Shown: positions 10,021-36,133 of the stretch, piece after piece
Layout of the letters: the number at the start of each line of letters is the position of its first letter
Position numbering within the stretch: position 1 is the stretch's first letter
Origin: Escherichia phage vB_vPM_PD114
Sequence record: MH675927.1
DNA length: 64,000 nt
Strand: one strand, 5' to 3'
Made by a program: the position numbers and the translations under genes
Notes under the pieces: generated by a model
Databases searched by the model: none
Seen by the model: the letters and a program-made list of their open reading frames with translations, nothing else
Told to the model about the DNA's origin: nothing

Positions 10021-10021
10021 T

Positions 10022-14796: not shown

Positions 14797-15786
14797 TCAT
14801 TCCTCCATACACTTAAGAATATGTGCAATGACAGGTATAGTCCAACCATTACCTAACATCTTATATGCTTGTGTGTTACTACTCACTTTAAAGTAATCAT
14901 CTGGAACACCTTGTAAGCGGCAACACTCTTTAACCGTTAACTTTCTATAATGCACACCTTCACTCAATTTTTCAAAGGCATCCAGATATCTTCCAGGTGG
15001 AATGTAAGCTAACAGTACGTCTTTAGGCACAGTCGTGAGGCAACGAGTTTTTTCACTGTCCTGAACTTCCAAGCAATGTACCAAACGATCAGCTTTAGAT
15101 GTACTACGTTTGCCATTTTCATTAATTCTACGCCCATATATTGCTGCCGGATAAAAAGCTAGTTGTCTGCGGCTCTTTTCAAAATACTGTTCTATATTAC
15201 CACCTTTGGCATAATTTGCATCTATGCAATAAGCCTTATCCCTGTCTACAATACTATCATCTTCAATGATATCTTGCAACACTTCATTGGTAATATCCCA
15301 AGGTTTTATTTCCCAATTGCACCAGTATAAACGTTGTCTATTCTGTGCAGTGAAATCTGCGGAGTTAATGAATACGGGATCAACACCTAAGTAACTTGTG
15401 ATCACGTTTTCCCACTCCACCTTCATCTTAACGTTTTCAAGCATGAACTTAACATTAGGGTTAAACTTTTTAATATGTTCAAGAATTTCAACATATTCAA
15501 AGAACAGTTTAGATCGCGGATCTTGAAAGTTCAAACCCTTACCAGAAGAAGAGAAGCCTTGGCACGGGCTACCGCCTAACAAAATATCAATTTCTCCCCA
15601 CGGGATATCCCATTCTCTCCATTTTGTAACATCACCTAATTGAATAATATCTGGAAAATTGGCTTGGCTTTCAGCTATGGCAAATTTGTCCAATTCTGAG
15701 GCATAATACTTATCTACTTCAATACCTGCACTTTTTAGTGCAAGCATTCCTCCTGACATACCATCAAAAAGACTTAAAACTTTCAT
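14797..15786 (-). CDS. DNA cytosine-5 methyltransferase
   Basis: motif I FDGMSGG, motif IV GGSPCQGFS, motif VI ENV in canonical order. Confidence 0.8.
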   Translation of the reverse strand: MKVLSLFDGMSGGMLALKSAGIEVDKYYASELDKFAIAESQANFPDIIQLGDVTKWREWDIPWGEIDILLGGSPCQGFSSSGKGLNFQDPRSKLFFEYVEILEHIKKFNPNVKFMLENVKMKVEWENVITSYLGVDPVFINSADFTAQNRQRLYWCNWEIKPWDITNEVLQDIIEDDSIVDRDKAYCIDANYAKGGNIEQYFEKSRRQLAFYPAAIYGRRINENGKRSTSKADRLVHCLEVQDSEKTRCLTTVPKDVLLAYIPPGRYLDAFEKLSEGVHYRKLTVKECCRLQGVPDDYFKVSSNTQAYKMLGNGWTIPVIAHILKCMEE

Positions 15787-17629: not shown

Positions 17630-17938
17630 TTAACAAGTAATACTGGGAGTAACAATTGGATTAATAGGATACGTATACCAAGGGCTTCCAATTTCCCAAG
17701 GGTTATAAGGTGTACGAGGATCAAATGGAGGCGTTACTTGAGGCTTTTTCCAAATCTCCGCTAGTTGTTTCTTCCATTTATCCCTTGCTGTATCGTTATC
17801 TTCATCCAACTGTTCGTCATTATCTTTTATTTCTGATTTTGGAAATAAAAGCTCTTTGACTAACTCAACGTCTTCCGTTTCAATAGTAGTTTCTTTCGTA
17901 ATATTCCCTACCGTCTCTTTAATTGTGACTTTATACAT
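17630..17938 (-). CDS. hypothetical protein
   Basis: track ORF; SD agaggagg. Confidence 0.55.
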   Translation of the reverse strand: MYKVTIKETVGNITKETTIETEDVELVKELLFPKSEIKDNDEQLDEDNDTARDKWKKQLAEIWKKPQVTPPFDPRTPYNPWEIGSPWYTYPINPIVTPSITC

Positions 17939-18684
17939 TAGTCCTCCTCTAAAGTAGAATAAAATTGTAACGTATTTGAATCATCAAAATATGCAAAGGT
18001 TAAATTACCATTGAACACAGACCCAGTATCCATATATACCCTATTACTGCTAATTACAGGTTTAGGAACATAAGAATGCCCGTGAAATACATAATCTACT
18101 CCTGAAACTCTAGGAAGAAGAATCCCTTCAAGTGCGCAATCTATCATATCACGATCCCACATTAAAGATTCTGTGAATCGAGAAACTTGCTCTTTATCCA
18201 TATTCAAACAAAATGGCAAAACTTCTGTCACTGGTAAATGTTCCAAAACTGAAGGATATCCACCGTGAATAAAGCCTAGTTTCATATTACGATAATTGAC
18301 AACAAGTACAACAGGTAAGTCTTCTAGCATCAAAGCAAGAGCAGTTGCACCTTCTTCTCCACACTCGTTTAGAACTGTATGGCCTCCGTTCTGAAACCAA
18401 CATTCGTAATATCGCCTATCACCTTCTAGCAACCCTTTAATCATCATATCTTCGTGATTTCCACGAATAGCATAGCGATTTAGTTTTCTGGTGAATTCAA
18501 CGGTACAACGAAAATTCTGCTTGCCGCGATCTGTAAGATCTCCTAAAGATACAACAACATCTTGATCTCGGATACCTAAAGTATTAACACCTTTCTGGTA
18601 TAAATCAAAGCAACCATGTAAATCACCAATAATAAACAGGTCTTGATCATCTTTTACACTAATTTCTTGATATACTAGCATCAA
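17938..18684 (-). CDS. Ser/Thr protein phosphatase (PPP, calcineurin-like)
   Basis: GDLHG, GDLTDRG and RGNHE metal-binding motifs in canonical order. Confidence 0.8.
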   Translation of the reverse strand: MMLVYQEISVKDDQDLFIIGDLHGCFDLYQKGVNTLGIRDQDVVVSLGDLTDRGKQNFRCTVEFTRKLNRYAIRGNHEDMMIKGLLEGDRRYYECWFQNGGHTVLNECGEEGATALALMLEDLPVVLVVNYRNMKLGFIHGGYPSVLEHLPVTEVLPFCLNMDKEQVSRFTESLMWDRDMIDCALEGILLPRVSGVDYVFHGHSYVPKPVISSNRVYMDTGSVFNGNLTFAYFDDSNTLQFYSTLEED

Positions 18685-21948: not shown

Positions 21949-22602
21949 TTAATTATCAGAGGATACTTTATCAAGTTTTTCAGAGACTGTCAATACTTTT
22001 TCTTGTGATTCTTTCATTTCTGCTAAAATACTTTCAGCTTCATCACTATCAGGATCACCAGTCAACAGCATACTAATTAGTTGCTCCTTGCTGAAGTTCA
22101 GAATATCTTCCGCTGTTAGCTCCAGTTGTTCTTCGATCTCTTCAACAAAAGTTTCACCGCCTGAAAAAGCATCTCGTAGTTTTGCAACTTCCATCGCTTC
22201 TTCTGGGGTTGCCCCAGCGTCTAAAGCTGCTAAAGCAAAATCTGCCCCACTACCAACAGCATAGTAATCTTCAGTTAAAGGATATGCTCGCGTTGGATTA
22301 TTACCCTCGTGCATATAAATTTTACCGTCTGGGTGAACAACCAATGCCACAAACTCTTCATCTTCTTTATCAGGGTCTGATTGGATCACCAAACCTGGGA
22401 TTGTCTCTTGTGCTGCCTGGCACTGTAAGTTTTGTTCAAACCAAGAAAAGAAAGTCAGGATAGAAGACAGACGTCCTGCACCACCAACAAGGTAATCCCC
22501 AATTTTACGCACTTTCTTGAAATTTAAAGTGTCTACTCGATTACCTACTGTTACTTTACCGTCAGATAGAATTTTGTTATGTGTTGCAATAATTGTTGTC
22601 AT
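21949..22602 (-). CDS. HslV/proteasome beta-like Ntn-hydrolase peptidase
   Basis: N-terminal MTTIIA (Thr directly after initiator Met), GGAG and AVGSGA motifs as in HslV. Confidence 0.55.
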   Translation of the reverse strand: MTTIIATHNKILSDGKVTVGNRVDTLNFKKVRKIGDYLVGGAGRLSSILTFFSWFEQNLQCQAAQETIPGLVIQSDPDKEDEEFVALVVHPDGKIYMHEGNNPTRAYPLTEDYYAVGSGADFALAALDAGATPEEAMEVAKLRDAFSGGETFVEEIEEQLELTAEDILNFSKEQLISMLLTGDPDSDEAESILAEMKESQEKVLTVSEKLDKVSSDN

Positions 22603-23129: not shown

Positions 23130-23882
23130 TTAATATACTTCCGTGATGAACTGAGACAAACGGGAACGTTGGTTATCAGCAGTTGTCATTTCAACATAAC
23201 CAATAAAATCTACAATAGCTTCCCTTTCTCCTTCTTCGTTAATAGGAACAACACGATCTAACAAATCACCTAACCCGTTAGCTCTTCGTTTAATTGCATA
23301 TGTTTGATTAACATCGCCCATAATGACAATACGTGTATTAAGACCTGCTCGCTCAAGGAGAAGTTTTACTGTGTTTGGTGACATAAGTTGAACTTCATCA
23401 ATAAGAATAATGCTGTTATCCCACGTAGCACCTAGTGCATAGTTCGGAATATTAAGTTCAATTTTGCCACTTGCAATATCGTTTTCCAATTTATTTGCAG
23501 TCATAAACTGTTGGAAAATTCGTTTAGTTGATTCGTAGTGTGCTGCTAGTTTATCAGTCTTATCTCCAGATAAGAAACCGATTTGGTCATCACCTACTTC
23601 TGTCGGGTTTTTAAGGAAAATCAACTTTCTGAAGTCACCAGCTTTAAGCATTTGTAATGCTTTCCATAGTGCTGTTGTCGTTTTTCCTGTTCCTGCTGGG
23701 GCATTAACAATGGTTAAATCATTCCAAACCATGCTTCTTACAATAGCTTCTTGATTCCCAACAGGGGTAAATTCATCAAGACGGTAATCATCATTTCCTA
23801 CTGCTTTAGCCGCATAACGACTGGCACGTTTGTCATCATTGGCTGCTGATTGACGACGAGCCTTTGCGGTTTTATTTCCCAT
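23130..23882 (-). CDS. phoH: PhoH-like ATPase
   Basis: Walker A APAGTGKTT, Walker B ILIDEVQ. Confidence 0.8.
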   Translation of the reverse strand: MGNKTAKARRQSAANDDKRASRYAAKAVGNDDYRLDEFTPVGNQEAIVRSMVWNDLTIVNAPAGTGKTTTALWKALQMLKAGDFRKLIFLKNPTEVGDDQIGFLSGDKTDKLAAHYESTKRIFQQFMTANKLENDIASGKIELNIPNYALGATWDNSIILIDEVQLMSPNTVKLLLERAGLNTRIVIMGDVNQTYAIKRRANGLGDLLDRVVPINEEGEREAIVDFIGYVEMTTADNQRSRLSQFITEVY

Positions 23883-23892: not shown

Positions 23893-23918
23893 CTTATAAA
23901 AGGGGCTTTCGCCCCTTT
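23893..23918 (-). terminator. rho-independent terminator after lysozyme gene
   Basis: aaaggggcTTTCgcccctt hairpin with T-run on - strand. Confidence 0.5.
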
Positions 23919-23920: not shown

Positions 23921-24421
23921 TTAGTTATAAGCGTCTAATGTTCCAGTTTTAAGCACCTGAATTACACGCTCTGCGCGATTAGGCGTTTGGCGATACCATT
24001 TACTTTTACGTAAATTTATAGAGGCTTGAGTATAATATGAATTACTCACTAAAGTCAAGCTATTTTTGAAAGATTCTGCACCTTTCAATCCCATTTGAAA
24101 TACCATATTGATAATAGCCATTTTACGATTAGGACTTACTTTATCGTAAATAGGAGATAATATGGTACTTGAATGGATTTGTTGTATCGCTTTCTTTACG
24201 TCACCCTCAAAGATTTTTCTAGCTTCCGCTTCAGTAATAACCCCATTAGTTTTTCTACCTACTAAGTTATCAAGAATGCGTATAGCTTCTGATTTATCTT
24301 TAAGTTTTGTCAGAAGGTGTCCAATACCAACCGTCCAATACCCTTCGGTATCAGTATATACAGTTAGCTTTAGTCCTTCATCAAAACGTAACATATCAAA
24401 CACATCAACTACTTTAGCCAT
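23921..24421 (-). CDS. endolysin, T4 e-type lysozyme (GH24)
   Basis: DEGLKLTVYTDTEGYWTVGIGHLLTK catalytic region and INMVFQMG, WYRQTPNRA blocks matching T4 lysozyme. Confidence 0.85.
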   Translation of the reverse strand: MAKVVDVFDMLRFDEGLKLTVYTDTEGYWTVGIGHLLTKLKDKSEAIRILDNLVGRKTNGVITEAEARKIFEGDVKKAIQQIHSSTILSPIYDKVSPNRKMAIINMVFQMGLKGAESFKNSLTLVSNSYYTQASINLRKSKWYRQTPNRAERVIQVLKTGTLDAYN

Positions 24422-24433
24422 GTTTTCCTTATA

Positions 24434-24577
24434 TTAGTCGCCCTCCCCATGATCTAGCTCTTGAAACAGTAGGTGTTCAGGAGACATTTCACGTTTAGGC
24501 TTCGTCTTTTTAGTTTGGGACTTAAGCTCTGTTGCCAAAGCACGAGAAAAGATCTTACGTTTCTGTTTACCTTTCAT
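24434..24577 (-). CDS. small basic protein (47 aa)
   Basis: ATG after SD ggagtaac; fills gap between glutaredoxin and lysozyme. Confidence 0.3.
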   Translation of the reverse strand: MKGKQKRKIFSRALATELKSQTKKTKPKREMSPEHLLFQELDHGEGD

Positions 24578-24581
24578 ATTG

Positions 24582-24848
24582 TTACTCCGCAATCTGAGCC
24601 ATGAATTCACGTAGTTCAGAAAAACCTCCTACGTGGGTTAGCTGTTCACCATCTTCCACAAAAATCTGAGGGAATGTGCGTGGTAGAACACCTGTTTTCT
24701 CTAAAACCAGATTCTGAATCTGATCTAAAGAATAGTCTTCATCTAAGGTAAGATATTTAAAATCCTGTTCACGCTGTTCCAGTAGAATCTTAGCGTTAGT
24801 GCAGAAAGGACAATTTGGTTTACCGTAGATAATAAAATTCATTTTCAC
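24582..24848 (-). CDS. glutaredoxin/NrdH-like redoxin
   Basis: CPFC active site near N-terminus, about 88 aa; SD aaggag. Confidence 0.75.
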   Translation of the reverse strand: MKMNFIIYGKPNCPFCTNAKILLEQREQDFKYLTLDEDYSLDQIQNLVLEKTGVLPRTFPQIFVEDGEQLTHVGGFSELREFMAQIAE

Positions 24849-25675
24849 TCCTTGTTTAAAAGTATAGTTAAAGTTCTTACAATACCGCTATCAACACTTC
24901 GCGGATTTAAAGTAGGATCTGTTTTTAAATAAGATGTTGCTGGTCTGACTGCTTTAGAATTATAGGTTGAAGCAGATACAGGATTAACTGTAACAGATAA
25001 ATCTATAACAAGAAATATCTTACGTGCAAAATCATACCAAGAAATATAATCTGCACCTGCATAGTGTACAATTTTACTATTTACACCATCTTTTACAAGT
25101 TTAAAAATTGTTTCTGCCAGATCAGGTGCATAAGTAGGACATGATAAATGATCACATACTACATTAAATTCTTTTTGACCACCGTTGTAGCGTTCCAACA
25201 TAGTTTTCAAAAAGTTATGTCCAAATTCACTATAAACAGAAGCTGTTCTGATAATAAGTGCTGTAGGACAAACTGTTTGTACTAAAGTTTCACCTAATTG
25301 TTTACTGTAACCATAGGTGTTCAAGGGGTTTGTTTTACTATCTTCTGTGCCAGCGACATGCCCATCAAAAACATAGTCTGTTGAAATATGTACAAACTGT
25401 ATCAGTAAATCATTACATGCTTTGGCAATGTTTGTTGCACCGTATGCATTAACATTTATACAGGTGTTAACATCTTCTTCAGCTTTATCTACTGCCGTGT
25501 AAGCCGCACAATTCACAACAACATCAGGCACATGCTGTACAAGACTATTCATAACATCTTTAAAGTTGGTAATGTCTACATCACTTGCTTCAATCAAAAT
25601 AACATCTTCGGGCGCAACTTTTGCCAAAGACTGTCCTAATTGACCTTTTGAACCAAAGATTAAAAATTTTGTCAA
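24845..25675 (-). CDS. rmlD: dTDP-4-dehydrorhamnose reductase
   Basis: N-terminal Rossmann FGSKGQLG; RmlD-like length; non-ATG start per track with SD aaggagatc. Confidence 0.7.
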   Translation of the reverse strand: MTKFLIFGSKGQLGQSLAKVAPEDVILIEASDVDITNFKDVMNSLVQHVPDVVVNCAAYTAVDKAEEDVNTCINVNAYGATNIAKACNDLLIQFVHISTDYVFDGHVAGTEDSKTNPLNTYGYSKQLGETLVQTVCPTALIIRTASVYSEFGHNFLKTMLERYNGGQKEFNVVCDHLSCPTYAPDLAETIFKLVKDGVNSKIVHYAGADYISWYDFARKIFLVIDLSVTVNPVSASTYNSKAVRPATSYLKTDPTLNPRSVDSGIVRTLTILLNKE

Positions 25676-26226
25676 AATATGATCTCCTTTAGTGTTTTGG
25701 CTTGCTGATCTTTTTGTGACAAGATAGGTTTAAAATTAATATCATTAAAGATTAAATCAAAACCCCAGTCTATATTGATATCTGGATCATTCCACGCAAG
25801 ACTACACTCTGAAGTCGGATCGTAATATTCTGTACATTTATATTCAAAATCAGCAATGTCGCTAATCACAACAAAGCCATGAGCGAAACCAGGAGGAATC
25901 CAAAATTGTGTTTTATTCTTTTCAGATAAGAGAACACCTACCCATTCTCCAAATGTTGGACTACCAACCCTAATATCTACAGCAACATCATAAACTTCAC
26001 CACGAACACAACGTACTAACTTCCCTTGTGGGTTTTTCTTTTGAAAATGAAGCCCACGTAGAACTCCTCGAATAGAACGTGAGTGGTTATCCTGGACAAA
26101 GTTTTGTTTACCTATGTATTGATCATATAAAGCCTGATTAAAACTTTCTAAGAAAAAGCCACGTTCATCTCCGTAAACGTCAGGTTGAATGATCAACAAA
26201 TCTTCGATTTTTGTTGCTTGAATCAT
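25672..26226 (-). CDS. rmlC: dTDP-4-dehydrorhamnose 3,5-epimerase
   Basis: DERGFFLE and cupin-type RmlC blocks; 184 aa. Confidence 0.75.
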   Translation of the reverse strand: MIQATKIEDLLIIQPDVYGDERGFFLESFNQALYDQYIGKQNFVQDNHSRSIRGVLRGLHFQKKNPQGKLVRCVRGEVYDVAVDIRVGSPTFGEWVGVLLSEKNKTQFWIPPGFAHGFVVISDIADFEYKCTEYYDPTSECSLAWNDPDINIDWGFDLIFNDINFKPILSQKDQQAKTLKEIIF

Positions 26227-26238
26227 TTAATTCCCCCT

Positions 26239-27108
26239 TTATTTTAATTTAAGTAAATACTTACCGTAGTCTGTTTTACTTAAAACCTCTCCAGAACTTT
26301 TTACAGAGTCTAAAGTAATCCATTCATTTTTAAAAGCAATCTCTTCTAGGCATGCAACCTTCATACCTTGTTGCTTTTCTATCGCATGAACAAATTGAGA
26401 TGCTTCCATAAGACTTTCATGTGTTCCTGTATCCAGCCAAGTGAAACCTCTTCCTAGTTTACAGACACGTAAAGTCTTTTCTTTCCAGTACATCTCATTT
26501 ATATCTGTAATCTCTAACTCCCCTCTAGCAGAAGGTTTAACGCTCTTAGCTTTCTGTATAACAGAATTATCGTAAAAGTACAAGCCTGTGATTGCGTAGT
26601 TGCTTTTTGGTGCTTTTGGTTTTTCTTCAATACTCACCACTGTACCTTCAGAATCAAACTCAACAACACCAAATCTTTCAGGATCATTTACGTGATACCC
26701 AAAAATATTAGCTCCACCATTCTTTTCAATATGTTCTTTAGCAGAATCTAAAATGCTACCAAAACTCTGACCAAAGAATAAATTATCACCTAGCACAAGT
26801 GCTACAGAATCTTCACCAATAAAGTTCTCACCAATAATAAATGCTTCTGCTAAACCTTTTGGGCTGTTCTGTACTGCATACTGTAGGGAAATACCAAAAG
26901 AAGAACCATCACCTAAAAGATTTACAAAATTAATTTGATCTTCTGGTGTTGTAATTATTAGTATTTCCCTAATTCCAGAAAGCATTAGGACAGAGAGTGG
27001 ATAATAAATCATAGGCTTATCGTAAATTGGTAATAGTTGTTTACTAACCCCTTTAGTAACTGGGTAAAGTCTTGTTCCGCTACCACCTGCTAAGATAATA
27101 CCTTTCAT
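26239..27108 (-). CDS. rmlA: glucose-1-phosphate thymidylyltransferase
   Basis: [38 protein letters not shown]; high similarity to enterobacterial RmlA as recalled. Confidence 0.85.
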
Positions 27109-27116
27109 ACTCCTCC

Positions 27117-28106
27117 TTAAACTTTATTTTCCCACCACTCTTTGTTATCTACATACCAATCAATGGTTGAATAAAGTTTTTCTTCAAATGTGCCTTTAGC
27201 TTTCCACCCTAATTCCTTTTCGATCTTATAAGGATTCACTTCATATCTCAGATCATGCCCAGGTCTATCTGTAACCATCTCAATTAGGCTACAAGCATCT
27301 GTTTCAGATGGATACACCGCATCCATATAATCACAAATCATATAGATTACATCAATATTAGTTCTAGGGTTTCTGCTTCCAATATTATATGTCTCTCCAG
27401 ATTTGCCTTTAGTTACTACTAGGTGTAATGCTTCTGCGTGATCGTCAACGTATAACCAGTCTCTTACTTGAAGACCATTGCCATAAACAGGGATTGGTTT
27501 ATTCATCAAGATATTTGTTATCGTTTTAGGTATTAGTTTTTCTGGATGATGATATGCTCCAAAATTATTTGAACAATTTGTTATAACTGTCGGAATACCA
27601 TAAGTACGATGCCACGCTCTTACCAAATGATCGCTTGCTGCCTTAGATGCAGCATATGGACTACTTGGCTTATAAGGATTCTGTTCTGTAAACGGATAAT
27701 CCCCTTCTTCCATATCACCATATACTTCATCTGTTGAAATATGATGGAACATTTTAAGATTTGATTTATCTCCCATTAAACGAACAGCTTCTAGGAGATT
27801 AAATGTCCCAACAATATTTGAATTTATAAAAACACTCGGTGATGCTATTGAATTATCTACGTGACTTTCTGCTGCAAGATGCATTATATAATCTGGATTA
27901 ACATCTGCCACAATCTTAGCAGTTAACTGCGCATTTGTCAAGTCAACACGACAAAACTTTACATTGGGTGTTTCTGATAAATTTCTAGGGTCTGAAGCGT
28001 AACCCCATTTATCTATAACGTAAATATCATTTTTAGTATTTTTAGCCAGGAAACGAACTACCGCACTTCCAATAAAGCCTAAACCACCTGTTACTAAGTA
28101 TTTCAT
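27117..28106 (-). CDS. rmlB: dTDP-glucose 4,6-dehydratase
   Basis: TGGLGFIGS Rossmann, [20 protein letters not shown] (YxxxK) SDR motifs. Confidence 0.8.
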
Positions 28107-28300
28107 TTAGTCTCCTTCCAATTATTCCCTTCAGTAAAAATAATACCTTCATAAAACAACCATCTGGAACCTTTTTCAACAGGAACAGGAAGCTCTTCTT
28201 CAGTAAAGTTATAAACCTCTTTAGCATCTTCTAAAAGTGATGCAAATGTTTTTGGACTTACTGTTACGCGAGGAGCATTGATCAGTTGATCTAGCATCAT
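28103..28300 (-). CDS. hypothetical protein
   Basis: track ORF 28103..28393 trimmed to internal ATG after aaggagg to remove overlap. Confidence 0.45.
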   Translation of the reverse strand: MMLDQLINAPRVTVSPKTFASLLEDAKEVYNFTEEELPVPVEKGSRWLFYEGIIFTEGNNWKETK

Positions 28301-28313
28301 TCTACTATCCTCC

Positions 28314-28640
28314 TTACCAAACGTGTTGAGAAATAATAGTTTCCGTTTCAATGTTATATTTTTCAAGAAGTTGTGCATAGGCTTCTTTTGCATTCTTATT
28401 TAGTTGCTCAAGATCTACAGCTACACTTCCTTCGCCACCTTCTAAATAAATCCCATATATGCAATAAGATGCATCAGCGTCATAGAAAGGTGAGATACGG
28501 CTTAAATCAAGACCTTCTTGTAAGAACCAATTAAAATCTCCATCAAATTCTTCTTCAATTCTAGGATCTTCTCCTACAGCCTCTTCCCATTTATTAAAAG
28601 GTGCACCCTGTAACATACGCCATTCAGTGGCAACTCCCAT
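28314..28640 (-). CDS. hypothetical acidic protein
   Basis: track ORF; SD gaggagg. Confidence 0.55.
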   Translation of the reverse strand: MGVATEWRMLQGAPFNKWEEAVGEDPRIEEEFDGDFNWFLQEGLDLSRISPFYDADASYCIYGIYLEGGEGSVAVDLEQLNKNAKEAYAQLLEKYNIETETIISQHVW

Positions 28641-28776
28641 TATCTTCCTCCTCTTCTTTTTCTTCCGTGTGAACGAAGCCTAAACCGTTACAATTCCAAC
28701 ACGGAATAAATTGTTCCATACTAACAATAAAATTCCCAGTACCACCGCAGATAGGACAAATACTTACATCATCCAT
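28624..28776 (-). CDS. small zinc-ribbon protein (50 aa)
   Basis: CPICGG..CWNCNG Cys pairs; SD gaggag; overlaps downstream start by 17 nt. Confidence 0.4.
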   Translation of the reverse strand: MDDVSICPICGGTGNFIVSMEQFIPCWNCNGLGFVHTEEKEEEEDNGSCH

Positions 28777-28778
28777 TA

Positions 28779-28961
28779 TTAAAGCTCCTCAATCTTTTCT
28801 AACATCTGTTTTAACTCATTCTCTGTTAACAGAATTTCTGTGATACCATCATAAGTTTCTACCATCAGAGTAAAACATTTTTCTCCATCTGAACACACAA
28901 AAGCACCACCTTCATCTTCTGTTAAGTCAGAATTAATATCTACATCAACAAAATCAATCAT
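28779..28961 (-). CDS. hypothetical acidic protein
   Basis: track ORF 28779..28985 trimmed to ATG overlapping upstream stop. Confidence 0.5.
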   Translation of the reverse strand: MIDFVDVDINSDLTEDEGGAFVCSDGEKCFTLMVETYDGITEILLTENELKQMLEKIEEL

Positions 28962-29172
28962 CTTTTTCTCCTTTGATAATTTCAAACTTGGCTACACCAT
29001 TAACTATAATGTGACCACAAGACATAACTCCTAGCCAATGATCACCATTCTTTTTTAAACGTTTACCGTAAACATCACAGAAACCATTCTGTAATTCGGA
29101 AGCCTCATAAGAGGCTCCCTTTTCGAAAACGTCTTTGAAGTCAGAAATTAATCCAACACAAAGTAGTTTCAT
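28954..29172 (-). CDS. hypothetical protein
   Basis: track ORF; SD gaggag; ATGA overlap with nrdB stop. Confidence 0.5.
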   Translation of the reverse strand: MKLLCVGLISDFKDVFEKGASYEASELQNGFCDVYGKRLKKNGDHWLGVMSCGHIIVNGVAKFEIIKGEKDD

Positions 29173-30257
29173 TAAAAGTCTAACTCCTCGTCATCACTTA
29201 CATCTTTATTTGCTGAATTCAGTTTGTAAGCTGTAATTTGGATCTCCTGTGCTGCTGCTTGAATTTGATCTGGATTTAACCAAACATCCATCCAAGGCAG
29301 TGGACTTTTCTTCGGTGCACGGAATTTGTGTTTCATTTTCAGTCTGCGATAGATAGGCGCAGCATTGAAGTAAACCCAAAGTTTGAACAACTCTGCGTTA
29401 CCACCAACGATAATCCTTCCTTCACTAAACAGATAGTCACACCAGTCTTCCTCTTGTCCAACTACCGTGTCAAGAATTTCTGTCAGAACGTCGATATTAT
29501 CTTCGTATACTTTTCTCCAAACAGGATCTTTCAGCAGTGCATCAATAATAGCATAATCCATTTTAACGTGCAATAGTTCATCCAACATAATTTTTTGAAT
29601 GAGTTTAGCTGCACCTACAAACAGTTGCTGCTCTGCTAAAGCAAATGTTGCAGCAAAAGAGGATATGAATTGAATGCCTTCCAGACCGATAAGTGCAATC
29701 ATTCCTTTCAGGATCAGTAGACGAAGGTTATCATCCTTCTCAATCAGACCTAGAGCATATTTATGTCCTGCTTCTGCCAGATCACTCATTACCTCTTCAA
29801 CTATACCCATCCTCTGGAAGATTCTTTCATTCTCCATAATCTGATCGATAACTTCATTTGGATTAGGGATACACTGACGAATAATTTCAGAATATGTCAA
29901 AGCGTGTAAAACTTCCATTTCTGATTGCTTCATCATCATTGCACATGCTTCGTTGTTGCTTAAAAATGGTGCAAACAAAGTGATGATTGATTTAGCAAGT
30001 GAATCATTTTCCCATTGGAAAGATAGGTTTTTGATCATAACATCGTAGTTGCTTTTAGAACAAGCTACGAAATCTTTTCGTGTCTGATCTAAGTCTACTT
30101 CGTTTTCATCCCAATCTTGCTGTTTTTGTAGTTTGTACAGACGATGCATTTCTGGGTATGTTACATTAATAGAATCAAAAATACCTAACTGTTCTCCCAA
30201 AAATACAGGATAGAAACCTTCTTTGTAAGTGTCGTTGTATAAATTAATTGCTGCCAT
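29172..30257 (-). CDS. nrdB: ribonucleotide reductase class Ia beta subunit
   Basis: ferritin-like di-iron protein with EVLHAL and DELLHVK carboxylate/His blocks, acidic C-terminal tail; adjacent to nrdA. Confidence 0.8.
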   Translation of the reverse strand: MAAINLYNDTYKEGFYPVFLGEQLGIFDSINVTYPEMHRLYKLQKQQDWDENEVDLDQTRKDFVACSKSNYDVMIKNLSFQWENDSLAKSIITLFAPFLSNNEACAMMMKQSEMEVLHALTYSEIIRQCIPNPNEVIDQIMENERIFQRMGIVEEVMSDLAEAGHKYALGLIEKDDNLRLLILKGMIALIGLEGIQFISSFAATFALAEQQLFVGAAKLIQKIMLDELLHVKMDYAIIDALLKDPVWRKVYEDNIDVLTEILDTVVGQEEDWCDYLFSEGRIIVGGNAELFKLWVYFNAAPIYRRLKMKHKFRAPKKSPLPWMDVWLNPDQIQAAAQEIQITAYKLNSANKDVSDDEELDF

Positions 30258-30271: not shown

Positions 30272-30296
30272 AATAAAAAAGGGGCCGAAGCCCATT
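30272..30296 (-). terminator. hairpin with T-run
   Basis: gggcTTCGgccc followed by TTTTTTATT on - strand. Confidence 0.4.
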
Positions 30297-30301: not shown

Positions 30302-30958
30302 TTAGCCTCGAAATACTGTTTTTGTTTCCGCCAGGTGACAATAGAAATCCGCTTTGTTTACAAGAGTGTTGTACACCTCTGGATAAAAATGTTCTTCCTC
30401 TTTGTAACGATCCGCTGTTTCCCTGATTGACTTAGCTTTATCCTTTAGCCAAGCAAAGTGTGCCTCTTCCTCTGTAGCGAAGTAGCCTAAATGCTTACCT
30501 TTACTTCCAGAGGCTTTTGCATAAATCTTACCATCTTTCCTAACATGTGCTCCTAGTAAGTATTTTCTTTCATACCTTTTAGCATAACTTAAGAGTGTAT
30601 TTATGTAAGGAGGAACAAACCTACAATATTCAGGACAATAAACAGTATTTCCTTCAAGAACAAGATCTTTATCTAAAACAAAGCCTTCCACGCTATGTTC
30701 CTGATACCAGTTATCAAAGTTTGAAAAGGTGAACCAAGCATCACACACGGTAACATCTTTATAACCTGGTCTAATGTTTTCCATATTATATGCACGATTA
30801 AACATACCCTTCCAAGCTGCATAAGAAGGGTCTATGAATGTATTAACCCTTTTCCCATTGATAACACCACCTTCCCACAATCTACGTTCAACATCCACAA
30901 TCAAGGGGATTTCTCCCCTCTCTGTGAGAACGGTAACTTTACGTTTACCCTTCTTCAT
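30302..30958 (-). CDS. putative homing endonuclease with AP2-like DNA-binding domain
   Basis: free-standing ORF between nrdA and nrdB; HLGYFATEEEAHFAW resembles AP2 domain; SD aggagaa. Confidence 0.45.
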   Translation of the reverse strand: MKKGKRKVTVLTERGEIPLIVDVERRLWEGGVINGKRVNTFIDPSYAAWKGMFNRAYNMENIRPGYKDVTVCDAWFTFSNFDNWYQEHSVEGFVLDKDLVLEGNTVYCPEYCRFVPPYINTLLSYAKRYERKYLLGAHVRKDGKIYAKASGSKGKHLGYFATEEEAHFAWLKDKAKSIRETADRYKEEEHFYPEVYNTLVNKADFYCHLAETKTVFRG

Positions 30959-30969: not shown

Positions 30970-33234
30970 CTACATTTTACAGGCACTACATCCTTCGTCT
31001 TCAGAATCTTCTTGTGCAAAAGAGTCTGCTGATTTTGTTCTACTATTTAGATAGTACAAAGATTTACCACCAAGTTTTGCAAACTGAAGGATATATTGCA
31101 TTTCTGATTTAATGGATAAACGACCACCTTCCATCTTAGAATAGTCAATCCACTTATCACATGATGCGCCTTGATCTAAGAATTTAGTCAATAGTCCATA
31201 TGCTTCAGCCATATCTTTATCTGGCGTATCCCAAGCCGATTGGTAAATATCTTTTAGTTTATCATAGTCTGGCACAATAAACAGGACATTACCTTTTTGG
31301 CTTTGTTTATAAACTATAGTATCACGTACAGGATACACAGAGTTAGTCGTATTACTTACAAGACTACTGGACTCATTCGGAGCAATAGCTGCTAATACAC
31401 TATTTCGGATACCGCCTTGTGCAATGATATCTTGTCGTAAACCTTCCCAATCCATTTTAAGTTTAAAATTGCCAATATCGTCTACAGCTTTAGCGTAGGT
31501 GTCAATAGGCAACCATCCTTCAGGCCATTTGGTTTTATGCATCCATTCTGCATTACCCTTCTCTTTTGCCAAACGAAGAGAAGCTCTTGCTAACCAGTAA
31601 TAATGCCTTTCTGCTAATTCGTGAATTAGTTTTTTGCCGTAAGGATCTGAATAAGTAACAAAATTACTTGCCAGATAATGTGCAAGGTTTGTAATACCTA
31701 CACCGATAGACCTACGTGCTTTAGCAGTGATTTCGTTATGTTTAAACGGATACTGCATTGTTTCAATAACATTATCAATAGTTAGAACTGTATAATATGC
31801 AACATCTTCATATTCTTCTGGTGTAACACGACCAGCTACAATAGAAGACAGGAAGCATAATGCCAATTCTTGATCTTCTGTATTCTCACCTGTGAAAAGA
31901 TCAGTCATATTGTGAAATGCTTTCGTAGGTAAGAAAATTTCTTGGCACAAGTTTGACTGATAAATAACATCCTTAAACGGAGTATGCCTATTAGCATTAT
32001 CCGCAAAGAACATATAAATACGTCCTGTCTCTGCTCTTTGTGTAATAATTTCTGCCAGAAGATCTCGTGCTTTTACAAACTTCTTCTTAATACGTTTGCG
32101 ACTAACTTTTTCATATACTTCTTCAAACTCTTCCTCGCTTTTATAAAGCGCCTCATAGAGTTCTGGTGCTTCGTCATAACTAACTAGCATCCAATCTTTA
32201 CCTTTTGCTGCACGGCGCAGGAAAGCATTGTTTACTACGATAGAGTAATCAAGTTTATCTACTCGTTTTTCACTAACAGTAGTTGGGTTTTTCAAACGTA
32301 CCAAATCTTCAAAATCAGGTTCTAATATTGTAAACGTTACTGTTGCACTTCCACCACGACTTGCTTGTTTTGATGCTCCAACACTTGTCTCCATCCATTT
32401 CAGATATGGTAAAAGACCACCGTGAACGATACGGTTGTTCTTAACACCTTGTCCTGTGGCACGGGTTTGAAGGTTAACACCAATACCTGCATTATTCAAT
32501 GTATATTCATGCGCAAGATAGTTAGCAATTGCTAAAGATTCTGCTGTATCATCTGCTCTAAACAGACAACAAGAAGCACTACCTTTAATCTTAGTACGCA
32601 AAGTTGTTAAATAAGGCGATGGTAAATTAATCTTAAGATCACTTACGTAGGTATATAGACGTTTAATGTCTTCTACTCTGCGATCTTTTGGTTGGATTTC
32701 CATTACCTTCATTGCTACACCAATGAATAAAAACTGTGGTGATTCAAAAACAACATCATTGATCGCATCTTTCACAAGATACTTATCAACCATCTGGCGC
32801 AGTACGGAATAACCATAAGTTAGGTTTTTATCGTGATTGACAATTTTACCAATCTCAATAATTTCTTCTTCTGTATAATCCATTTTTCCCCAATAGCCTT
32901 TACTTACAGACATATTGTAGAAATCCAGGAGGGAGGGGATATTATGATATCCCCCATGAGCCTGTTTATAAATCATACCAAGAAGTAACCGACCTGCCAT
33001 ATCACTATATGCCTGATCTTTCTTATCAATACATGCTGCTATCATAGCTTTATGTAAATCACGAGTAGGCACACCGTCGTAACAACGTTTAACAGCTTCA
33101 AGTTCAATTTCAGACCAATTTAATTTACCAGCAGCAAACTCTGACCATTTACGAAGTTTTTCTGGATTAAATTCTTCTTTCTTGCCGTTTGTTTTTGTTA
33201 CATAACGGATAGATTTGCTTAGATACTGAGTCAC
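30970..33234 (-). CDS. nrdA: ribonucleotide reductase class Ia alpha subunit
   Basis: 754 aa; active-site NLCQE, C-terminal CSACKM redox pair; start codon at 33234 not verified. Confidence 0.85.
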   Translation of the reverse strand: MTQYLSKSIRYVTKTNGKKEEFNPEKLRKWSEFAAGKLNWSEIELEAVKRCYDGVPTRDLHKAMIAACIDKKDQAYSDMAGRLLLGMIYKQAHGGYHNIPSLLDFYNMSVSKGYWGKMDYTEEEIIEIGKIVNHDKNLTYGYSVLRQMVDKYLVKDAINDVVFESPQFLFIGVAMKVMEIQPKDRRVEDIKRLYTYVSDLKINLPSPYLTTLRTKIKGSASCCLFRADDTAESLAIANYLAHEYTLNNAGIGVNLQTRATGQGVKNNRIVHGGLLPYLKWMETSVGASKQASRGGSATVTFTILEPDFEDLVRLKNPTTVSEKRVDKLDYSIVVNNAFLRRAAKGKDWMLVSYDEAPELYEALYKSEEEFEEVYEKVSRKRIKKKFVKARDLLAEIITQRAETGRIYMFFADNANRHTPFKDVIYQSNLCQEIFLPTKAFHNMTDLFTGENTEDQELALCFLSSIVAGRVTPEEYEDVAYYTVLTIDNVIETMQYPFKHNEITAKARRSIGVGITNLAHYLASNFVTYSDPYGKKLIHELAERHYYWLARASLRLAKEKGNAEWMHKTKWPEGWLPIDTYAKAVDDIGNFKLKMDWEGLRQDIIAQGGIRNSVLAAIAPNESSSLVSNTTNSVYPVRDTIVYKQSQKGNVLFIVPDYDKLKDIYQSAWDTPDKDMAEAYGLLTKFLDQGASCDKWIDYSKMEGGRLSIKSEMQYILQFAKLGGKSLYYLNSRTKSADSFAQEDSEDEGCSACKM

Positions 33235-34014: not shown

Positions 34015-34986
34015 TCACCATTTTGTATGGTTAGTCAAAAGTTGACGATGTTGAATCCAACCACAGAAGTTTCCACTCCATAAACGATGTTTACGATCCA
34101 TATGTGTAATACCTTCTTCCCAAGAAGTAGGGAACGGAGGAATATTAATACCACCTTTCTGTTGTTTTAATCCTGACAAATCCATTTCTTTCATTGGTGT
34201 TGCCTGGTGTTCAAACGGGGATGCATGTACCTTTTGTCCAGACAGCAAACGAGAATAGATATCCAATGCTTTATCTTTAGTATCATTCAACTTACGATAA
34301 CTTACCTGAGCGCAACAAGAAGCTGAAATAGCTTTTGCTTCATCTTCTGTCAACATTTTCTCGTTGGAGAAGGTTTCACCCAAGAAATAACGGATCATAC
34401 CAGTTTCTGGATCTCGATCACGATTAACGTAAGGTGTATGCCATTCTCCTGGGAAAAGAAGATATGGTTCAGAAGATTCATACAGTTTTTTAATTTCTTT
34501 AGCAAGAGCCTCAATAGTAGGATCTGCATCAGCATCTACGCGCAACCACAAGAAGTTTTCTAGCTCTGTAGTGGTTACTACAGTCTTCATACGCTGAAAT
34601 GGTTCTAGTAGTCGGTTTGCAACCTGTTTATGATAACCAGCAAGGGCAAACTCTTCTGCAAAACGTGCAGCACTTAGCGCAGCCAAGTCCCACCATTCTT
34701 TTGCAGTATAACCTGCATCAATCAGGGCATCGTGATCTGTGCCTTTATCTTGCATACCTGGTTGGTTAGCACCAAAGCGATAAGGACGTGCTGGAGATTG
34801 CCGTACCATTTCAATTAGAGTTTTAACAGGGATAGCTCGACTTGATGCGGCATTACGAGAAAACAAACGATGCGTCATCAATTCAGAGTGAATGATTCGA
34901 GGATATTCAAGTTCAAAGGTAACAATATCCTTACCTTCGGATGTTTGAGAGTGTGCAATAATTTTTGCTGAAATAGAATTTGTCAT
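34015..34986 (-). CDS. thyX: flavin-dependent thymidylate synthase
   Basis: ThyX signature MTHRLFSRNAASSRAIP (RHR...S). Confidence 0.8.
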   Translation of the reverse strand: MTNSISAKIIAHSQTSEGKDIVTFELEYPRIIHSELMTHRLFSRNAASSRAIPVKTLIEMVRQSPARPYRFGANQPGMQDKGTDHDALIDAGYTAKEWWDLAALSAARFAEEFALAGYHKQVANRLLEPFQRMKTVVTTTELENFLWLRVDADADPTIEALAKEIKKLYESSEPYLLFPGEWHTPYVNRDRDPETGMIRYFLGETFSNEKMLTEDEAKAISASCCAQVSYRKLNDTKDKALDIYSRLLSGQKVHASPFEHQATPMKEMDLSGLKQQKGGINIPPFPTSWEEGITHMDRKHRLWSGNFCGWIQHRQLLTNHTKW

Positions 34987-34995: not shown

Positions 34996-35586
34996 TTAAG
35001 GTAGTAAAATACTTTCAATTTCTTCCCACTGATTATCTAAACCAGTGATAATTACATTAGGAAGTTTCTTTAACTCTTCCAAATATGGATCTTCGTAAAT
35101 AGTGTTGAAATATATTTTCAACGTTTCATCTGGAAACAGGACAAGATTTTCAGCCCTATCGTCAATAGTTACATCGCAAGGTAATAAGTATTTTTCTTTT
35201 GTTGCGAAAAAACCATTACCAGATGTTCTACTAAAATCCACTTTATCTAAAGATCGTGTTACGTGTCTATATTTAGAACTAAGGTGTCCACCCTTAGTGT
35301 GGCTTGCTATAGATATATTAGCTCCATTTGCAATTATACGATGAACAACATCTGTACTATTAGGTACTACTCCCATAGTATCATATAGATGTTGGTTATC
35401 CCAAAAAGAGTAAGGATCTACACCAAATTGCTTTTTAAAATCAGGGAAATATTTCGTAATATCATAGTGCACAGTTTTATGTGTCTTATCAAATTTGATA
35501 TTAGATCTACTTACCGCATTTAACCAATTTAACCATTCTATATCCGCTGGAGCTATTACTAAATCCCAATCACATACTAGACGCAT
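34996..35586 (-). CDS. putative HAD-family 5'-nucleotidase
   Basis: DWD (DxD) near trimmed N-terminus and IDDR near C-terminus; track ORF 34996..35700 trimmed to ATG after aggagaa. Confidence 0.4.
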   Translation of the reverse strand: MRLVCDWDLVIAPADIEWLNWLNAVSRSNIKFDKTHKTVHYDITKYFPDFKKQFGVDPYSFWDNQHLYDTMGVVPNSTDVVHRIIANGANISIASHTKGGHLSSKYRHVTRSLDKVDFSRTSGNGFFATKEKYLLPCDVTIDDRAENLVLFPDETLKIYFNTIYEDPYLEELKKLPNVIITGLDNQWEEIESILLP

Positions 35587-36133
35587 TATTTCTCCTGTTA
35601 TAACATTTTCTACACATTGTTTCGTAAATGTCTTCTCCTCCAATAACAATCTGTTCTTTAGAGTCGATAAGTCTAGCATTGAAAATAGCTTTTCTTCCAC
35701 ATTTACAAATGCTTTTCAATTCTGTAATTGAATCTGCTATGGCTAATAACCGTTCAGAACCTTCAAACAATTCTGTAGCAAAATCTGTTTTAAGTCCATA
35801 GCAGAATACAGGAATATCGTAATTATCTACCACATCTCCAAGAATGTCAACCATATCTTTAGTTAGGAATTGTGATTCGTCCACAAATACTGCATCTACT
35901 GGATTTTCTTTAAGTTGTGTATAAATTTCCAGCATATCTTCTTTTGTTTTAACTGGTTTTGCTTCCTCTTTAATACCTATCCTGGAAGCAATAGCACCAC
36001 CAGATCTGGTATCTAAAGCTGAAGTTAAAAGAAGAACTTTCATATTTCTTTCTTTATAGTTCCAAGCTGTTTGTAGCAGATGTGTGCTTTTACCACTGTT
36101 CATTGGACTATATCGGAAATAAAGTTTAGCCAT
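35570..36133 (-). CDS. tdk: thymidine kinase
   Basis: P-loop YSPMNSGKST, C-terminal CKCGRK...CRKCY zinc site. Confidence 0.85.
   Translation of the reverse strand: MAKLYFRYSPMNSGKSTHLLQTAWNYKERNMKVLLLTSALDTRSGGAIASRIGIKEEAKPVKTKEDMLEIYTQLKENPVDAVFVDESQFLTKDMVDILGDVVDNYDIPVFCYGLKTDFATELFEGSERLLAIADSITELKSICKCGRKAIFNARLIDSKEQIVIGGEDIYETMCRKCYNRRNNASSM

Follow-up and report, generated by a model that had tools for sequence, protein, structure and literature searches.

A dTDP-L-rhamnose gene cluster in the phi92-like Escherichia phage vB_vPM_PD114 and its possible role in phage-directed glycosylation

What does a phage gain from four genes of dTDP-L-rhamnose synthesis placed among its genes for nucleotide metabolism? 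The question is raised by a stretch of 64,000 nucleotides (hereafter the window) from Escherichia phage vB_vPM_PD114 (MH675927.1), the whole of which belongs to a phi92-like myovirus (Justusliebigvirus, Stephanstirmvirinae). The rml cluster itself is already known, both from GenBank annotation and from Olsen 2020 (PMC7552041), who pointed it out in phi92/phAPEC8-type phages, and the window adds no gene beyond the known Stephanstirmvirinae rml module. What is new is a link to a cluster of glycosyltransferase (GT) genes and the existence of variants that have only rmlC and rmlD.

The four rml genes and the glutaredoxin gene are five adjoining open reading frames (ORFs), all on the minus strand (Table 1). 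Their surroundings are as first described from the sequence: ORF positions and Pfam matches place nrdAB, thyX, tdk, grx and lysozyme genes around the cluster, in a region that is phage-like throughout. Each gene of the cluster is preceded by an AGGAG-type ribosome-binding site, that of rmlD (AAGGAG) lying 8 nt upstream. The true start of grx is likely the ATG at 24842 (86 aa), matching the annotation of relatives. Two of the small ORFs between nrdB and rmlB were tested against Pfam and gave no match; counterparts of these ORFs are found in phAPEC8, Tr1, nepoznato and KP2025, and all five are part of the rml insertion described below and probably of the same transcription unit. Apart from the two hairpins listed, no hairpin of terminator type is present on the minus strand from 23921 to 30257. 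As read from the sequence, nrdB is probably the first gene of a transcription unit (nrdB...rmlBACD-grx-lysozyme) that would end at the hairpin 3' of the lysozyme gene.

Table 1. Features of the rml locus and its neighbourhood, in window coordinates
Feature	Position	Strand	Remarks
PhoH	23130-23882		
Terminator-like hairpin, GGGGC-GAAA-GCCCC then TTTTAT	23899-23918	-	3' of lysozyme gene; predicted function
Lysozyme	23921-24421		
grx, glutaredoxin	24582-24848	-	Pfam Glutaredoxin 9.4e-12
rmlD, dTDP-4-dehydrorhamnose reductase	24845-25675	-	276 aa; TTG start; 4-nt overlap with rmlC stop
rmlC, dTDP-4-dehydrorhamnose 3,5-epimerase	25672-26226	-	184 aa
rmlA, glucose-1-phosphate thymidylyltransferase	26239-27108	-	289 aa
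rmlB, dTDP-glucose 4,6-dehydratase	27117-28106	-	329 aa
Five small ORFs, nrdB to rmlB	28103-28393, 28314-28640, 28624-28776, 28779-28985, 28954-29172	-	From ORF list
nrdB	29172-30257	-	Class Ia RNR beta subunit in annotation of all relatives; upstream edge of rml insertion
Terminator-like hairpin, GGGC-TTCG-GCCC then T6	30272-30291	-	Just upstream of nrdB ribosome-binding site; read from sequence; predicted function
nrdA	30970-33234		
ThyX	34015-34986		Divergent; Pfam Thy1
tdk	35570-36133		

Enzymes were assigned with NCBIfam equivalog models and their curated cut-offs, and the Pfam matches agree. The proposal of four neighbouring Rml genes is borne out, all four products scoring above the respective cut-off: RmlB (TIGR01181, 443 bits, cut-off 365), RmlA (TIGR01207, 473 bits, cut-off 361), RmlC (TIGR01221, 260 bits, cut-off 156) and RmlD (TIGR01214, 254 bits, cut-off 224). 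Alignment to solved enzymes shows that RmlB is 57% identical to Salmonella RmlB (1g1a) and keeps TDE and YxxxK; RmlA is 66% identical at the amino acid level to Salmonella RmlA (1iim) and keeps GGSGTRL, LGDN, EEKP and LDTGT; and RmlC is 62% identical to Salmonella RmlC (1dzr) and keeps the catalytic His, Lys and Tyr. The best solved relatives of RmlD are those of Bacillus anthracis (3sc6, 37%) and Clostridium (1vl0), with GxxGxxG, T and YxxxK kept.

Inactivation, a possibility allowed for by the sequence-only reading, is not seen: the rml ORFs are full length, with no frameshift or internal stop in alignments to the solved enzymes, and their catalytic motifs are intact. Compared with phage PaulScherrer, the rml genes have 39 synonymous and 6 nonsynonymous differences (pooled pN/pS 0.04), with 15 synonymous and none nonsynonymous in rmlB; all four genes are under strong purifying selection. 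The four genes would form a working phage-borne pathway, the product of which is very probably dTDP-L-rhamnose. dTDP-6-deoxy-L-talose is considered as an alternative product because RmlD scores only 30 bits above its cut-off, and at 37% identity to the nearest solved enzyme the stereochemistry of C4 reduction is a prediction.

The segment is syntenic and 97-99% identical at the nucleotide level over 7.5 kb in more than 50 independently sequenced Justusliebigvirus genomes, including the near-identical relatives UAB_1, phi92, alia and PaulScherrer, in which gene content and order are the same. The order nrdB-small ORFs-rmlBACD-grx-lysozyme-phoH is shared with phAPEC8 and Citrobacter phage Tr1, and the rml segment is kept in three lineages of the subfamily. 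In the outgroups Vequintavirus JohannBauhin and Seunavirus PVP-SE1, grx comes immediately after nrdB and there are no rml genes. This comparison indicates that the cluster was inserted into an ancestral nrdB-grx junction; glutaredoxin is therefore a member of the nrd module rather than of the rml unit with which it had initially been grouped.

A pathway to a nucleotide sugar calls attention to the enzymes that might use it. As the sequence-only reading had noted, the window holds no recognisable GT: tblastn found no GT homolog within the 64 kb (all E>1). The rest of the genome, which that reading had proposed to search, was approached through UAB_1 and other relatives, and four soluble GT genes were found beyond the window (two GT4-like GT-B paralogs and two small GT-A-like genes). 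They lie approximately 39 kb past the window end in UAB_1, which is 99% identical, adjoin a primase/helicase gene and are present in all relatives examined. The GT genes co-occur with rml across the subfamily; this co-occurrence amounts to few independent events, because it is largely co-inheritance within one subfamily.

The GT proteins match PHROG 'glycosyltransferase' families at 1e-79 to 1e-149, with weak Pfam GT matches, and no transmembrane segment was found in any of the four. In the GT-A-like protein the DDD and YGxED motifs are invariant. This protein also has 60 tblastn matches to Mycobacterium phage records, which are significant but distant (25-30% identity, E 6e-8 to 6e-6); the matches listed are annotated as GTs and include those of cluster-F-type phages such as Pacc40 and Llij. 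AlphaFold models of the GTs (pLDDT 88.8 and 94.1) have as their nearest structural analogs, for both GT types, many enzymes that act on lipid-linked glycans (GlfT2, PglA, PglH/WlaC, WbnH, WaaG, PimA), and the GT-A-like model also matches Mimivirus R699 and R655 and a domain of PBCV-1 A64R. These are generic GT-A and GT-B fold matches, by which neither donor nor acceptor is identified.

The most informative relatives are those with an incomplete set. Exactly rmlB and rmlA are missing from roughly a third of the Phapecoctaviruses, among them nepoznato, WPEC1 and ZCKP1, in which rmlC, rmlD and the GTs are intact; ESCO37 has independently been noted as being without rmlA and rmlB (PMC10269720). 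The rmlBA-less junction is a GGAGA microhomology that places the rmlB ribosome-binding site on rmlC. Klebsiella phage KP2025 represents a second such lineage. RmlC is distributed across phages as the GT genes are, with tblastn record counts for Escherichia and Klebsiella, respectively, of 105 and 8 for RmlC, 106 and 9 for GT-A, and 106 and 10 for GT-B; for RmlA the counts are only 88 and at most 1. As the variants are without rmlB and rmlA but keep the other genes, RmlC and RmlD together with the GTs form the conserved core. For rmlD in the Phapecoctaviruses with this reduced set, constraint is not demonstrated, because synonymous changes are few (2 synonymous and 7 nonsynonymous differences in one comparison, 7 and 5 in another).

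The reading that we favour, and consider moderately likely on the gene content, is that the cluster supplies dTDP-L-rhamnose for phage-directed glycosylation. The genes, which probably share a transcript with nrdB, grx and the endolysin gene, would convert glucose-1-phosphate and dTTP via RmlABCD to dTDP-glucose, dTDP-4-keto-6-deoxy-glucose, dTDP-4-keto-rhamnose and finally dTDP-L-rhamnose, guaranteeing a supply in any enterobacterial host. Enterobacteria make the precursor for enterobacterial common antigen (ECA) with RffH and RffG. RmlA and RmlB would merely boost this precursor, already made by every enterobacterium, and the indispensable phage share would be RmlC and RmlD, steps absent from many E. 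coli and Klebsiella strains. That the product feeds the four co-inherited soluble GTs is likely; these would assemble a glycan that contains rhamnose on an acceptor in the cytoplasm. Among them, the plausible rhamnosyltransferases are the GT-A-like enzymes only, since GT4 enzymes are as a rule retaining and take UDP- or GDP-sugars as donors. Against the supply model, the rml and GT clusters are approximately 70 kb apart and not one operon, and the homology to mycobacteriophage GTs is weak at 25-30% identity.

As acceptor we would rank virion proteins above host envelope glycans, and these above DNA. One or more virion proteins are proposed tentatively, because of the analogy and distant homology to the GTs of cluster-F mycobacteriophages: Che8 and Rita, of cluster F1, bear capsid-linked glycans (Freeman 2023, as cited in PMC11256854). 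The sole lead to a particular virion acceptor is a Ser/Thr/Asn-rich C-terminus in the tail sheath and portal proteins, and no biochemical or mass-spectrometry report of a glycan on phi92-like or phAPEC8-like phages was found in the literature. A virion glycan would be the first such system in Gram-negative phages. Coliphages of the phi92 and phAPEC8 types have a broad host range and are frequently isolated with therapy or biocontrol in view, and rhamnose on their virions could have consequences for neutralisation by antibodies, binding to mucus, stability and pharmacokinetics. The role is now easy to test, because natural variants with all four genes or with rmlC and rmlD only exist and candidate transferases have been identified.

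The product might instead be directed at the host envelope, RmlC and RmlD diverting dTDP-4-keto-6-deoxy-glucose from Fuc4NAc and ECA, the GTs rhamnosylating undecaprenyl-linked ECA, O-antigen or LPS-core intermediates, or both. These phages have ECA in common as primary receptor, and an LPS-core glucose serves as the terminal one (PMC8594841). The conserved core acts, from what is known of the pathway, exactly at the ECA branch-point intermediate, and the lipid-linked substrates of so many GT structural analogs also fit. However, the four GTs have no membrane anchor, the annotation of the curated PaulScherrer genome contains no flippase, polymerase or ligase, phages with rmlA and rmlB would raise the ECA precursor and not deplete it, and the time that a strictly lytic phage has for surface remodelling is short. 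We regard both routes as unlikely; if either is used, a lytic phage would be manipulating receptors in a new way, altering on infected cells the receptor that it uses itself and so leading to superinfection exclusion or to fewer progeny lost on debris.

Glycosylation of phage DNA with dTDP-L-rhamnose as donor, perhaps at particular sequence motifs, is less probable still. Olsen 2020 put this role forward on the model of glucosyl-hmC in T4 (PMC7552041), and it was also among the roles first considered here. The phi92-like phages Bas60-62, however, are 'exceptionally susceptible' to restriction-modification systems (Maffei 2021, PMC8594841), which disfavours bulk modification. Nor would the bases offer a hydroxyl acceptor, because the thymidylate synthase is ThyX rather than a hydroxymethylase of ThyA type, and a scan of 30 larger ORFs from the window and from PaulScherrer revealed neither a TET/JBP enzyme nor a 2OG-dioxygenase. 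The match of a GT to TAGT (PF20691) is below threshold (23.3 bits, gathering score 27.5) and covers the N-terminal nucleotide-binding part only, and the T4 GTs, AGT and BGT, are not among the top fold matches but take ranks 17 and 31, behind many non-DNA GT4 enzymes. All DNA glycosylations known to us use UDP-sugars. The rhamnose pathway and the four GTs may form a glycosylation system whose acceptor class is undescribed for Gram-negative phages. Its less extreme form, which we hold to with the reserve expressed above, is a rhamnose-containing glycan on coliphage virion proteins; its extreme form, quite improbable, has phage DNA rhamnosylated at particular motifs, for instance via the phage C5-methyltransferase and an unrecognised oxidase. 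The latter would be the first DNA modification to depend on a dTDP-sugar, and would evade the restriction assays carried out so far.

Control of the nucleotide pool, in which RmlA consumes dTTP or the pathway buffers dTDP/dTTP and no glycan is needed, is suggested by the use of dTTP by RmlA and by the position of the cluster between nrdAB/thyX/tdk and grx. That position is explained by insertion into the nrdB-grx junction. The variants described above, in Phapecoctaviruses and in the KP2025 lineage, have lost or never possessed exactly rmlA and rmlB; the RmlC and RmlD that remain are useless for dTTP consumption, and all four steps are under purifying selection. The conserved core therefore disfavours this role, which we consider highly improbable.

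There remains the proposal of host acquisition made for RmlA. An enterobacterial RmlA is indeed the best match, but at only 66% amino acid identity any acquisition was at best ancient; Pseudomonas and archaeal RmlA score nearly as high as the Salmonella enzyme, and RmlD is nearest to Bacillus and Clostridium enzymes. Although the best solved-structure matches of RmlA, RmlB and RmlC are Salmonella and E. coli enzymes, the possibility that the segment is host DNA inserted recently, or a chimera of assembly, and does nothing for the phage is excluded for practical purposes by the synteny in more than 50 phages and three subfamily lineages, by a best E. coli DNA match of approximately 65-67% nucleotide identity that never takes in rmlD (5,426 E. 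coli genomes), by the different gene order (B-A-C-D in the phage, rfbB-D-A-C in the host), by a flat GC content of about 36% with rml GC3 of 0.19-0.25, like that of neighbouring genes, and by phage-like codon usage (r = 0.89).

Among known systems, T-even glucosylation and TAGT likewise have GTs near replication and nucleotide-metabolism genes, and share the GT-B fold with sub-threshold sequence matches. They differ in having a hydroxymethyl-base pathway, none of which was found here, and in using UDP-glucose and not a dTDP-sugar as donor; the phages studied here are also restriction-hypersensitive. A seroconversion module of the GtrABC/Oac type was considered and rejected: the GTs have no transmembrane segment, and the PaulScherrer annotation contains no gtr- or oac-like gene and no integrase-based lysogeny module. 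Mycobacteriophages with virion glycosylation (Che8, Rita) also encode soluble GTs, and Mycobacterium phage GTs are distant homologs of the GT-A-like protein of phi92-like phages. The mycobacteriophages are temperate siphoviruses of Actinobacteria which, to our knowledge, use host nucleotide sugars and have no rml genes, and glycosylation of the virion, shown for them, is a proposal for phi92-like phages. Mimivirus has a UDP-L-rhamnose pathway, and chloroviruses such as PBCV-1 have their own GTs. Giant viruses thus resemble the phage in encoding both nucleotide-sugar synthesis and GTs, a relationship of analogy; they differ in their eukaryotic hosts and in using UDP- and GDP-sugars rather than dTDP-sugars.

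Partial pathways occur in unrelated cyanophages and metagenomic phages: Synechococcus phages S-B43 and RN05-S have RmlC homologs (46% identity) beside genes for dTDP-glucose or GDP-mannose 4,6-dehydratase, and a 595-kb uncultured phage has an RmlA homolog. The bacterial rml (rfb) operon has the same four families at the equivalog level, and in the phage too they have intact motifs and are tightly packed and translationally coupled. The phage cluster differs from it in lying in a lytic myovirus, between nrdB and grx and outside an O-antigen locus, with no adjoining Wzx, Wzy or rhamnosyltransferase, and from the rfbBDAC operon of E. coli and Salmonella in its B-A-C-D order, its 57-66% amino acid identity and its Firmicutes-like RmlD. 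The closest system is the rml module of Stephanstirmvirinae (phi92/phAPEC8 type), of which the window is a member with no material difference.

The rml cluster of vB_vPM_PD114 is genuine, intact and conserved, but it is not new: it has already been annotated and discussed for this phage group (PMC7552041, PMC8594841). Five closely spaced ORFs occupy positions 24582-28106 of the - strand in the ORF list of the window. The products of the first four exceed the NCBIfam equivalog cut-offs for RmlB, RmlA, RmlC and RmlD, and Pfam gives the same four assignments and identifies the fifth ORF as a glutaredoxin gene (grx). The Rml catalytic signatures are complete in alignments to solved enzymes, and an AGGAG-type ribosome-binding site precedes each gene. 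Together with the equivalog scores, these features confirm the four intact - strand rml genes proposed in a sequence-only reading; as judged from the ORFs themselves, none of the cluster genes is inactivated. The rmlC/rmlD and rmlD/grx ORFs overlap or abut, suggesting translational coupling.

Features of the window and of related phages (positions refer to the window unless a piece with local numbering is named)
Feature	Position	Strand	Remark
rmlB	27117-28106	-	TIGR01181, 443 bits (cut-off 365)
rmlA	26239-27108	-	TIGR01207, 473 bits (cut-off 361)
rmlC	25672-26226	-	TIGR01221, 260 bits (cut-off 156)
rmlD	24845-25675	-	TIGR01214, 254 bits (cut-off 224)
grx	24582-24848	-	glutaredoxin
Sir2-family protein	12652-13464	-	upstream of the cluster
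C5-cytosine DNA methyltransferase	14797-15786	-	upstream of the cluster
Calcineurin-like phosphoesterase	17938-18684	-	upstream of the cluster
Proteasome/HslV-like protein	21949-22602	-	upstream of the cluster; weak
50-aa ORF	28624-28776	-	between nrdB and rmlB
218-aa ORF	30302-30958	-	between nrdA and nrdB; no Pfam match
ThyX	34015-34986	-	323 aa
NT5C-like 5'-nucleotidase	34996-35700		weak; adjoins ThyX
PRPP-synthetase-like gene	48507-49400	+	by position and length against PaulScherrer annotation
Nicotinamide phosphoribosyltransferase gene	49472-51205	+	by position and length against PaulScherrer annotation
Four-gene glycosyltransferase cluster	PaulScherrer segment 45000-58000, local 2581-5757		two GT4-like paralogs, one GT2/GT27-like GT-A, one small DID-motif protein
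Tellurite-resistance-like set	PaulScherrer pieces L004, local 7763-11576, and L002, local 8354-12103		TerD, vWA-TerF-like, TelA, TerC
Tail sheath gene	PaulScherrer piece L001, local 10170-11576
Portal gene	PaulScherrer piece L001, local 2858-4426 (window 59922-61490)
rmlB+rmlA gap	phAPEC8 piece 5000-6879 against nepoznato piece 2411-2421		sequence comparison

Over the 7.5 kb around the cluster, more than 50 phi92-like myoviruses (UAB_1, phi92, alia, PaulScherrer/Bas60 and others) share 97-99% identity with the window, and GenBank relatives (Justusliebigvirus, Stephanstirmvirinae) already carry rml labels on the four genes. The order nrdA-nrdB-small ORFs-rmlB-A-C-D-grx-small ORF-lysozyme-phoH recurs in phAPEC8 (Phapecoctavirus) and Citrobacter phage Tr1, whose proteins share 54-79% amino-acid identity with those of the window. 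No experimental study of rhamnose, glycosylation or pathway function was found in the literature on Stephanstirmvirinae. The useful new handles are a link to glycosyltransferases and natural variants retaining only rmlC and rmlD, one instance of which others have mentioned in passing. Some matching records have doubtful host labels: MG065639, MG065645, MG065656 and MG065689 ("Campylobacter phage"), OR584014 ("Pseudomonas phage PsgM04F") and OP562383 ("Acinetobacter phage ABPW7"). Records so labelled are 98.5% identical to these coliphages (Phapecoctavirus type 80-84%), which suggests contamination or mis-assignment.

In the outgroups Vequintavirus JohannBauhin and Seunavirus PVP-SE1, which lack rml genes, the order is thyX...nrdA-nrdB-grx-nrdD-nrdG. 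The rmlBACD genes and some small ORFs were thus inserted where nrdB and grx ancestrally adjoined, and the glutaredoxin is a ribonucleotide-reductase partner; its earlier listing with the rml unit does not hold. Immediately upstream of nrdB, and again directly behind the lysozyme gene, there is a terminator-like GC hairpin with a T-tract, and the interval has no other. This placement suggests that nrdB, rml, grx and the lysozyme gene form a single transcription unit. A promoter scan was uninformative, as it returned 36 sites where chance alone would give 41.

Several other genes in this region were noted. The 218-aa ORF, followed by a terminator-like hairpin, aligns across in few relatives (UAB_1, ESCO9, phi92, VivaForever), most alignments ending at approximately position 30275; PaulScherrer has a 111-aa ORF in its place. 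This ORF resembles a variable insertion and may be a gene of the homing-endonuclease type. The product of the 50-aa ORF has an acidic tail and two copies of the CxxCxGxG repeat, CPICGGTG and CWNCNGLG, in a pattern like that of a DnaJ-type zinc finger. ThyX, the thymidylate synthase, is divergent and unusually long (Pfam Thy1, E = 3.9e-9, profile positions 59-186). Further along, the PRPP-synthetase-like and nicotinamide phosphoribosyltransferase genes would, by PaulScherrer annotation, form an NAD salvage pair, and are followed by a tRNA cluster.

A homolog search bore out the earlier remark that the 64-kb window contains no glycosyltransferase. Such genes are found elsewhere: curated PaulScherrer has four adjoining genes beside a primase/helicase gene, two annotated as "putative disaccharide synthase" and two as "putative glycosyltransferase". 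In UAB_1 (99% identical), the GT-A-like gene lies approximately 39 kb beyond the point matching the window end. All four match PHROG glycosyltransferase families (1e-79 to 1e-149) and, weakly, Pfam ones; two are paralogs with 41% identity, the small fourth protein contains a DID motif, and none of the four has a transmembrane segment. A PDB sequence search with the four proteins returned no match. Fold searches with predicted models of the GT-A-like and GT-B-like proteins confirm GT2/GT27-like and GT4-like folds, respectively, assignments that concern fold class and not donor or acceptor; in BFVD, the predicted structures matched were mostly unnamed phage GT2-like proteins. Below threshold, the GT-A-like protein also weakly matches TAGT and, separately, the T-even HMC glucosyltransferase PHROG. 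Its tblastn matches to glycosyltransferases of Mycobacterium phages number 60 and are significant but distant; the ones listed include the cluster-F-type Pacc40 and Llij. Glycans linked to the capsid are reported for two phages of the F1 cluster, Che8 and Rita, in a citing paper (PMC11256854). The glycosyltransferase-primase-polymerase synteny, with the same glycosyltransferase arrangement, recurs in 20 kb of a JGI metagenome contig. Just past the PaulScherrer glycosyltransferases is the tellurite-resistance-like set, followed by genes for a phosphoribosyltransferase, a HAD-like protein and a macrodomain protein. "Ter" neighbourhoods of this kind are predicted to make a nucleoside-like metabolite.

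The glycosyltransferase cluster is co-inherited with rmlC and rmlD across the subfamily. In the phage collection, the GT-A-like protein has 106 Escherichia and 9 Klebsiella records, the GT-B-like protein 106 and 10, and RmlC 105 and 8; for RmlA the counts fall to 88 and at most 1, because some phages lack rmlB and rmlA. The nrdB-phoH region of phAPEC8 is matched at 95% identity or more by 65 records, of which only 44 cover at least 80% of it and the remainder lack approximately 1.87 kb; in nepoznato and WPEC1 the missing piece is exactly rmlB plus rmlA, with rmlC and rmlD full-length. ESCO37 has independently been described as lacking just these two genes (PMC10269720). Overall, this pair is missing, with rmlC and rmlD intact, from roughly a third of the Phapecoctavirus genomes and from one Klebsiella-phage lineage; the more distant Klebsiella phage KP2025 reads nrdB-small ORFs-rmlC-rmlD-grx-lysozyme-phoH. 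The Phapecoctavirus junction falls in a GGAGA microhomology between two Shine-Dalgarno sites, so that the ribosome-binding site of rmlB now serves rmlC. In phages with only rmlC and rmlD, rmlC is under strong constraint (15 synonymous versus 1 nonsynonymous change); change counts for rmlD are very small. The counts and variants together define a conserved core of RmlC, RmlD and the four glycosyltransferases, and by this genomic evidence RmlA and RmlB are dispensable. All enterobacteria make dTDP-4-keto-6-deoxy-glucose for enterobacterial common antigen (ECA), via RffH and RffG. Host supply of this precursor makes sense of the dispensability, and the rmlA/rmlB part is matched in every complete E. 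coli genome searched, consistent with such a supply.

These results narrow the roles proposed earlier. The end product, dTDP-L-rhamnose, would be the target of selection, and its simplest use would be as donor for the co-inherited glycosyltransferases; we favour, with moderate confidence, dTDP-L-rhamnose supply for phage-directed glycosylation. As acceptor, a virion protein is our tentative first choice, given the soluble glycosyltransferases, their homology to mycobacteriophage enzymes and a giant-virus precedent. The PaulScherrer tail sheath has a Ser/Thr/Asn-rich end (NRTANSQNSNSSTVSS) and the portal has the C-terminus GNGTSTSPAALDTSAANLAN; if virions are glycosylated, these termini may be O-glycosylation sites, a weak lead. 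A lipid-linked glycan of the host envelope is a less probable acceptor. Here the points in favour are that ECA is the primary receptor of phi92-like BASEL phages (PMC8594841), that RmlC and RmlD act at the ECA branch point and that many lipid-glycan glycosyltransferases appear among the fold matches; the evidence for choosing between virion protein and host glycan is thin. DNA ranks third and is a rather improbable acceptor: motif-restricted modification is possible, but bulk glycosylation is unlikely because phi92-like BASEL phages are "exceptionally susceptible" to restriction-modification systems "despite ... a putative dTDP glycosylation machinery" (PMC8594841), because the thymidylate synthase is ThyX and not a hydroxymethylase, and because no hydroxymethylase, TET/JBP or dioxygenase was found in the 30 larger ORFs scanned. 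Several methyltransferases are encoded by the phage, although restriction sensitivity is reported. Control of the dTTP pool is disfavoured, since some phages keep only RmlC and RmlD, a pair with no dTTP-consuming step.

The earlier suggestion of host acquisition needs correction. Each of the 5,426 complete E. coli genomes matches the cluster, but at only 60-80% nucleotide identity (best 65-67%) and always with less than 80% coverage, and none of the matches includes rmlD. Protein identity to the Salmonella enzymes is 66% for RmlA, 57% for RmlB and 62% for RmlC; the scores of Pseudomonas and archaeal RmlA come close to that of the Salmonella enzyme, and among solved enzymes RmlD is nearest to those of Bacillus and Clostridium (37%). 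GC content is flat across the window (0.33-0.43 in 1-kb windows, approximately 0.35 over the cluster), and the rml genes resemble neighbouring phage genes in GC3 (0.19-0.25) and codon usage (r = 0.89). A comparison of the four rml genes with those of PaulScherrer gives 39 synonymous but only 6 nonsynonymous differences, for a pooled pN/pS of 0.04. Divergence from the host, phage-like codon usage and this low ratio indicate an old, selected, resident phage module. Recent host transfer or an assembly chimera is rejected on the low host identity, the flat composition, the more than 50 syntenic phages and the gene order, which is rfbB-D-A-C in E. coli in contrast to rmlB-A-C-D in the phage.
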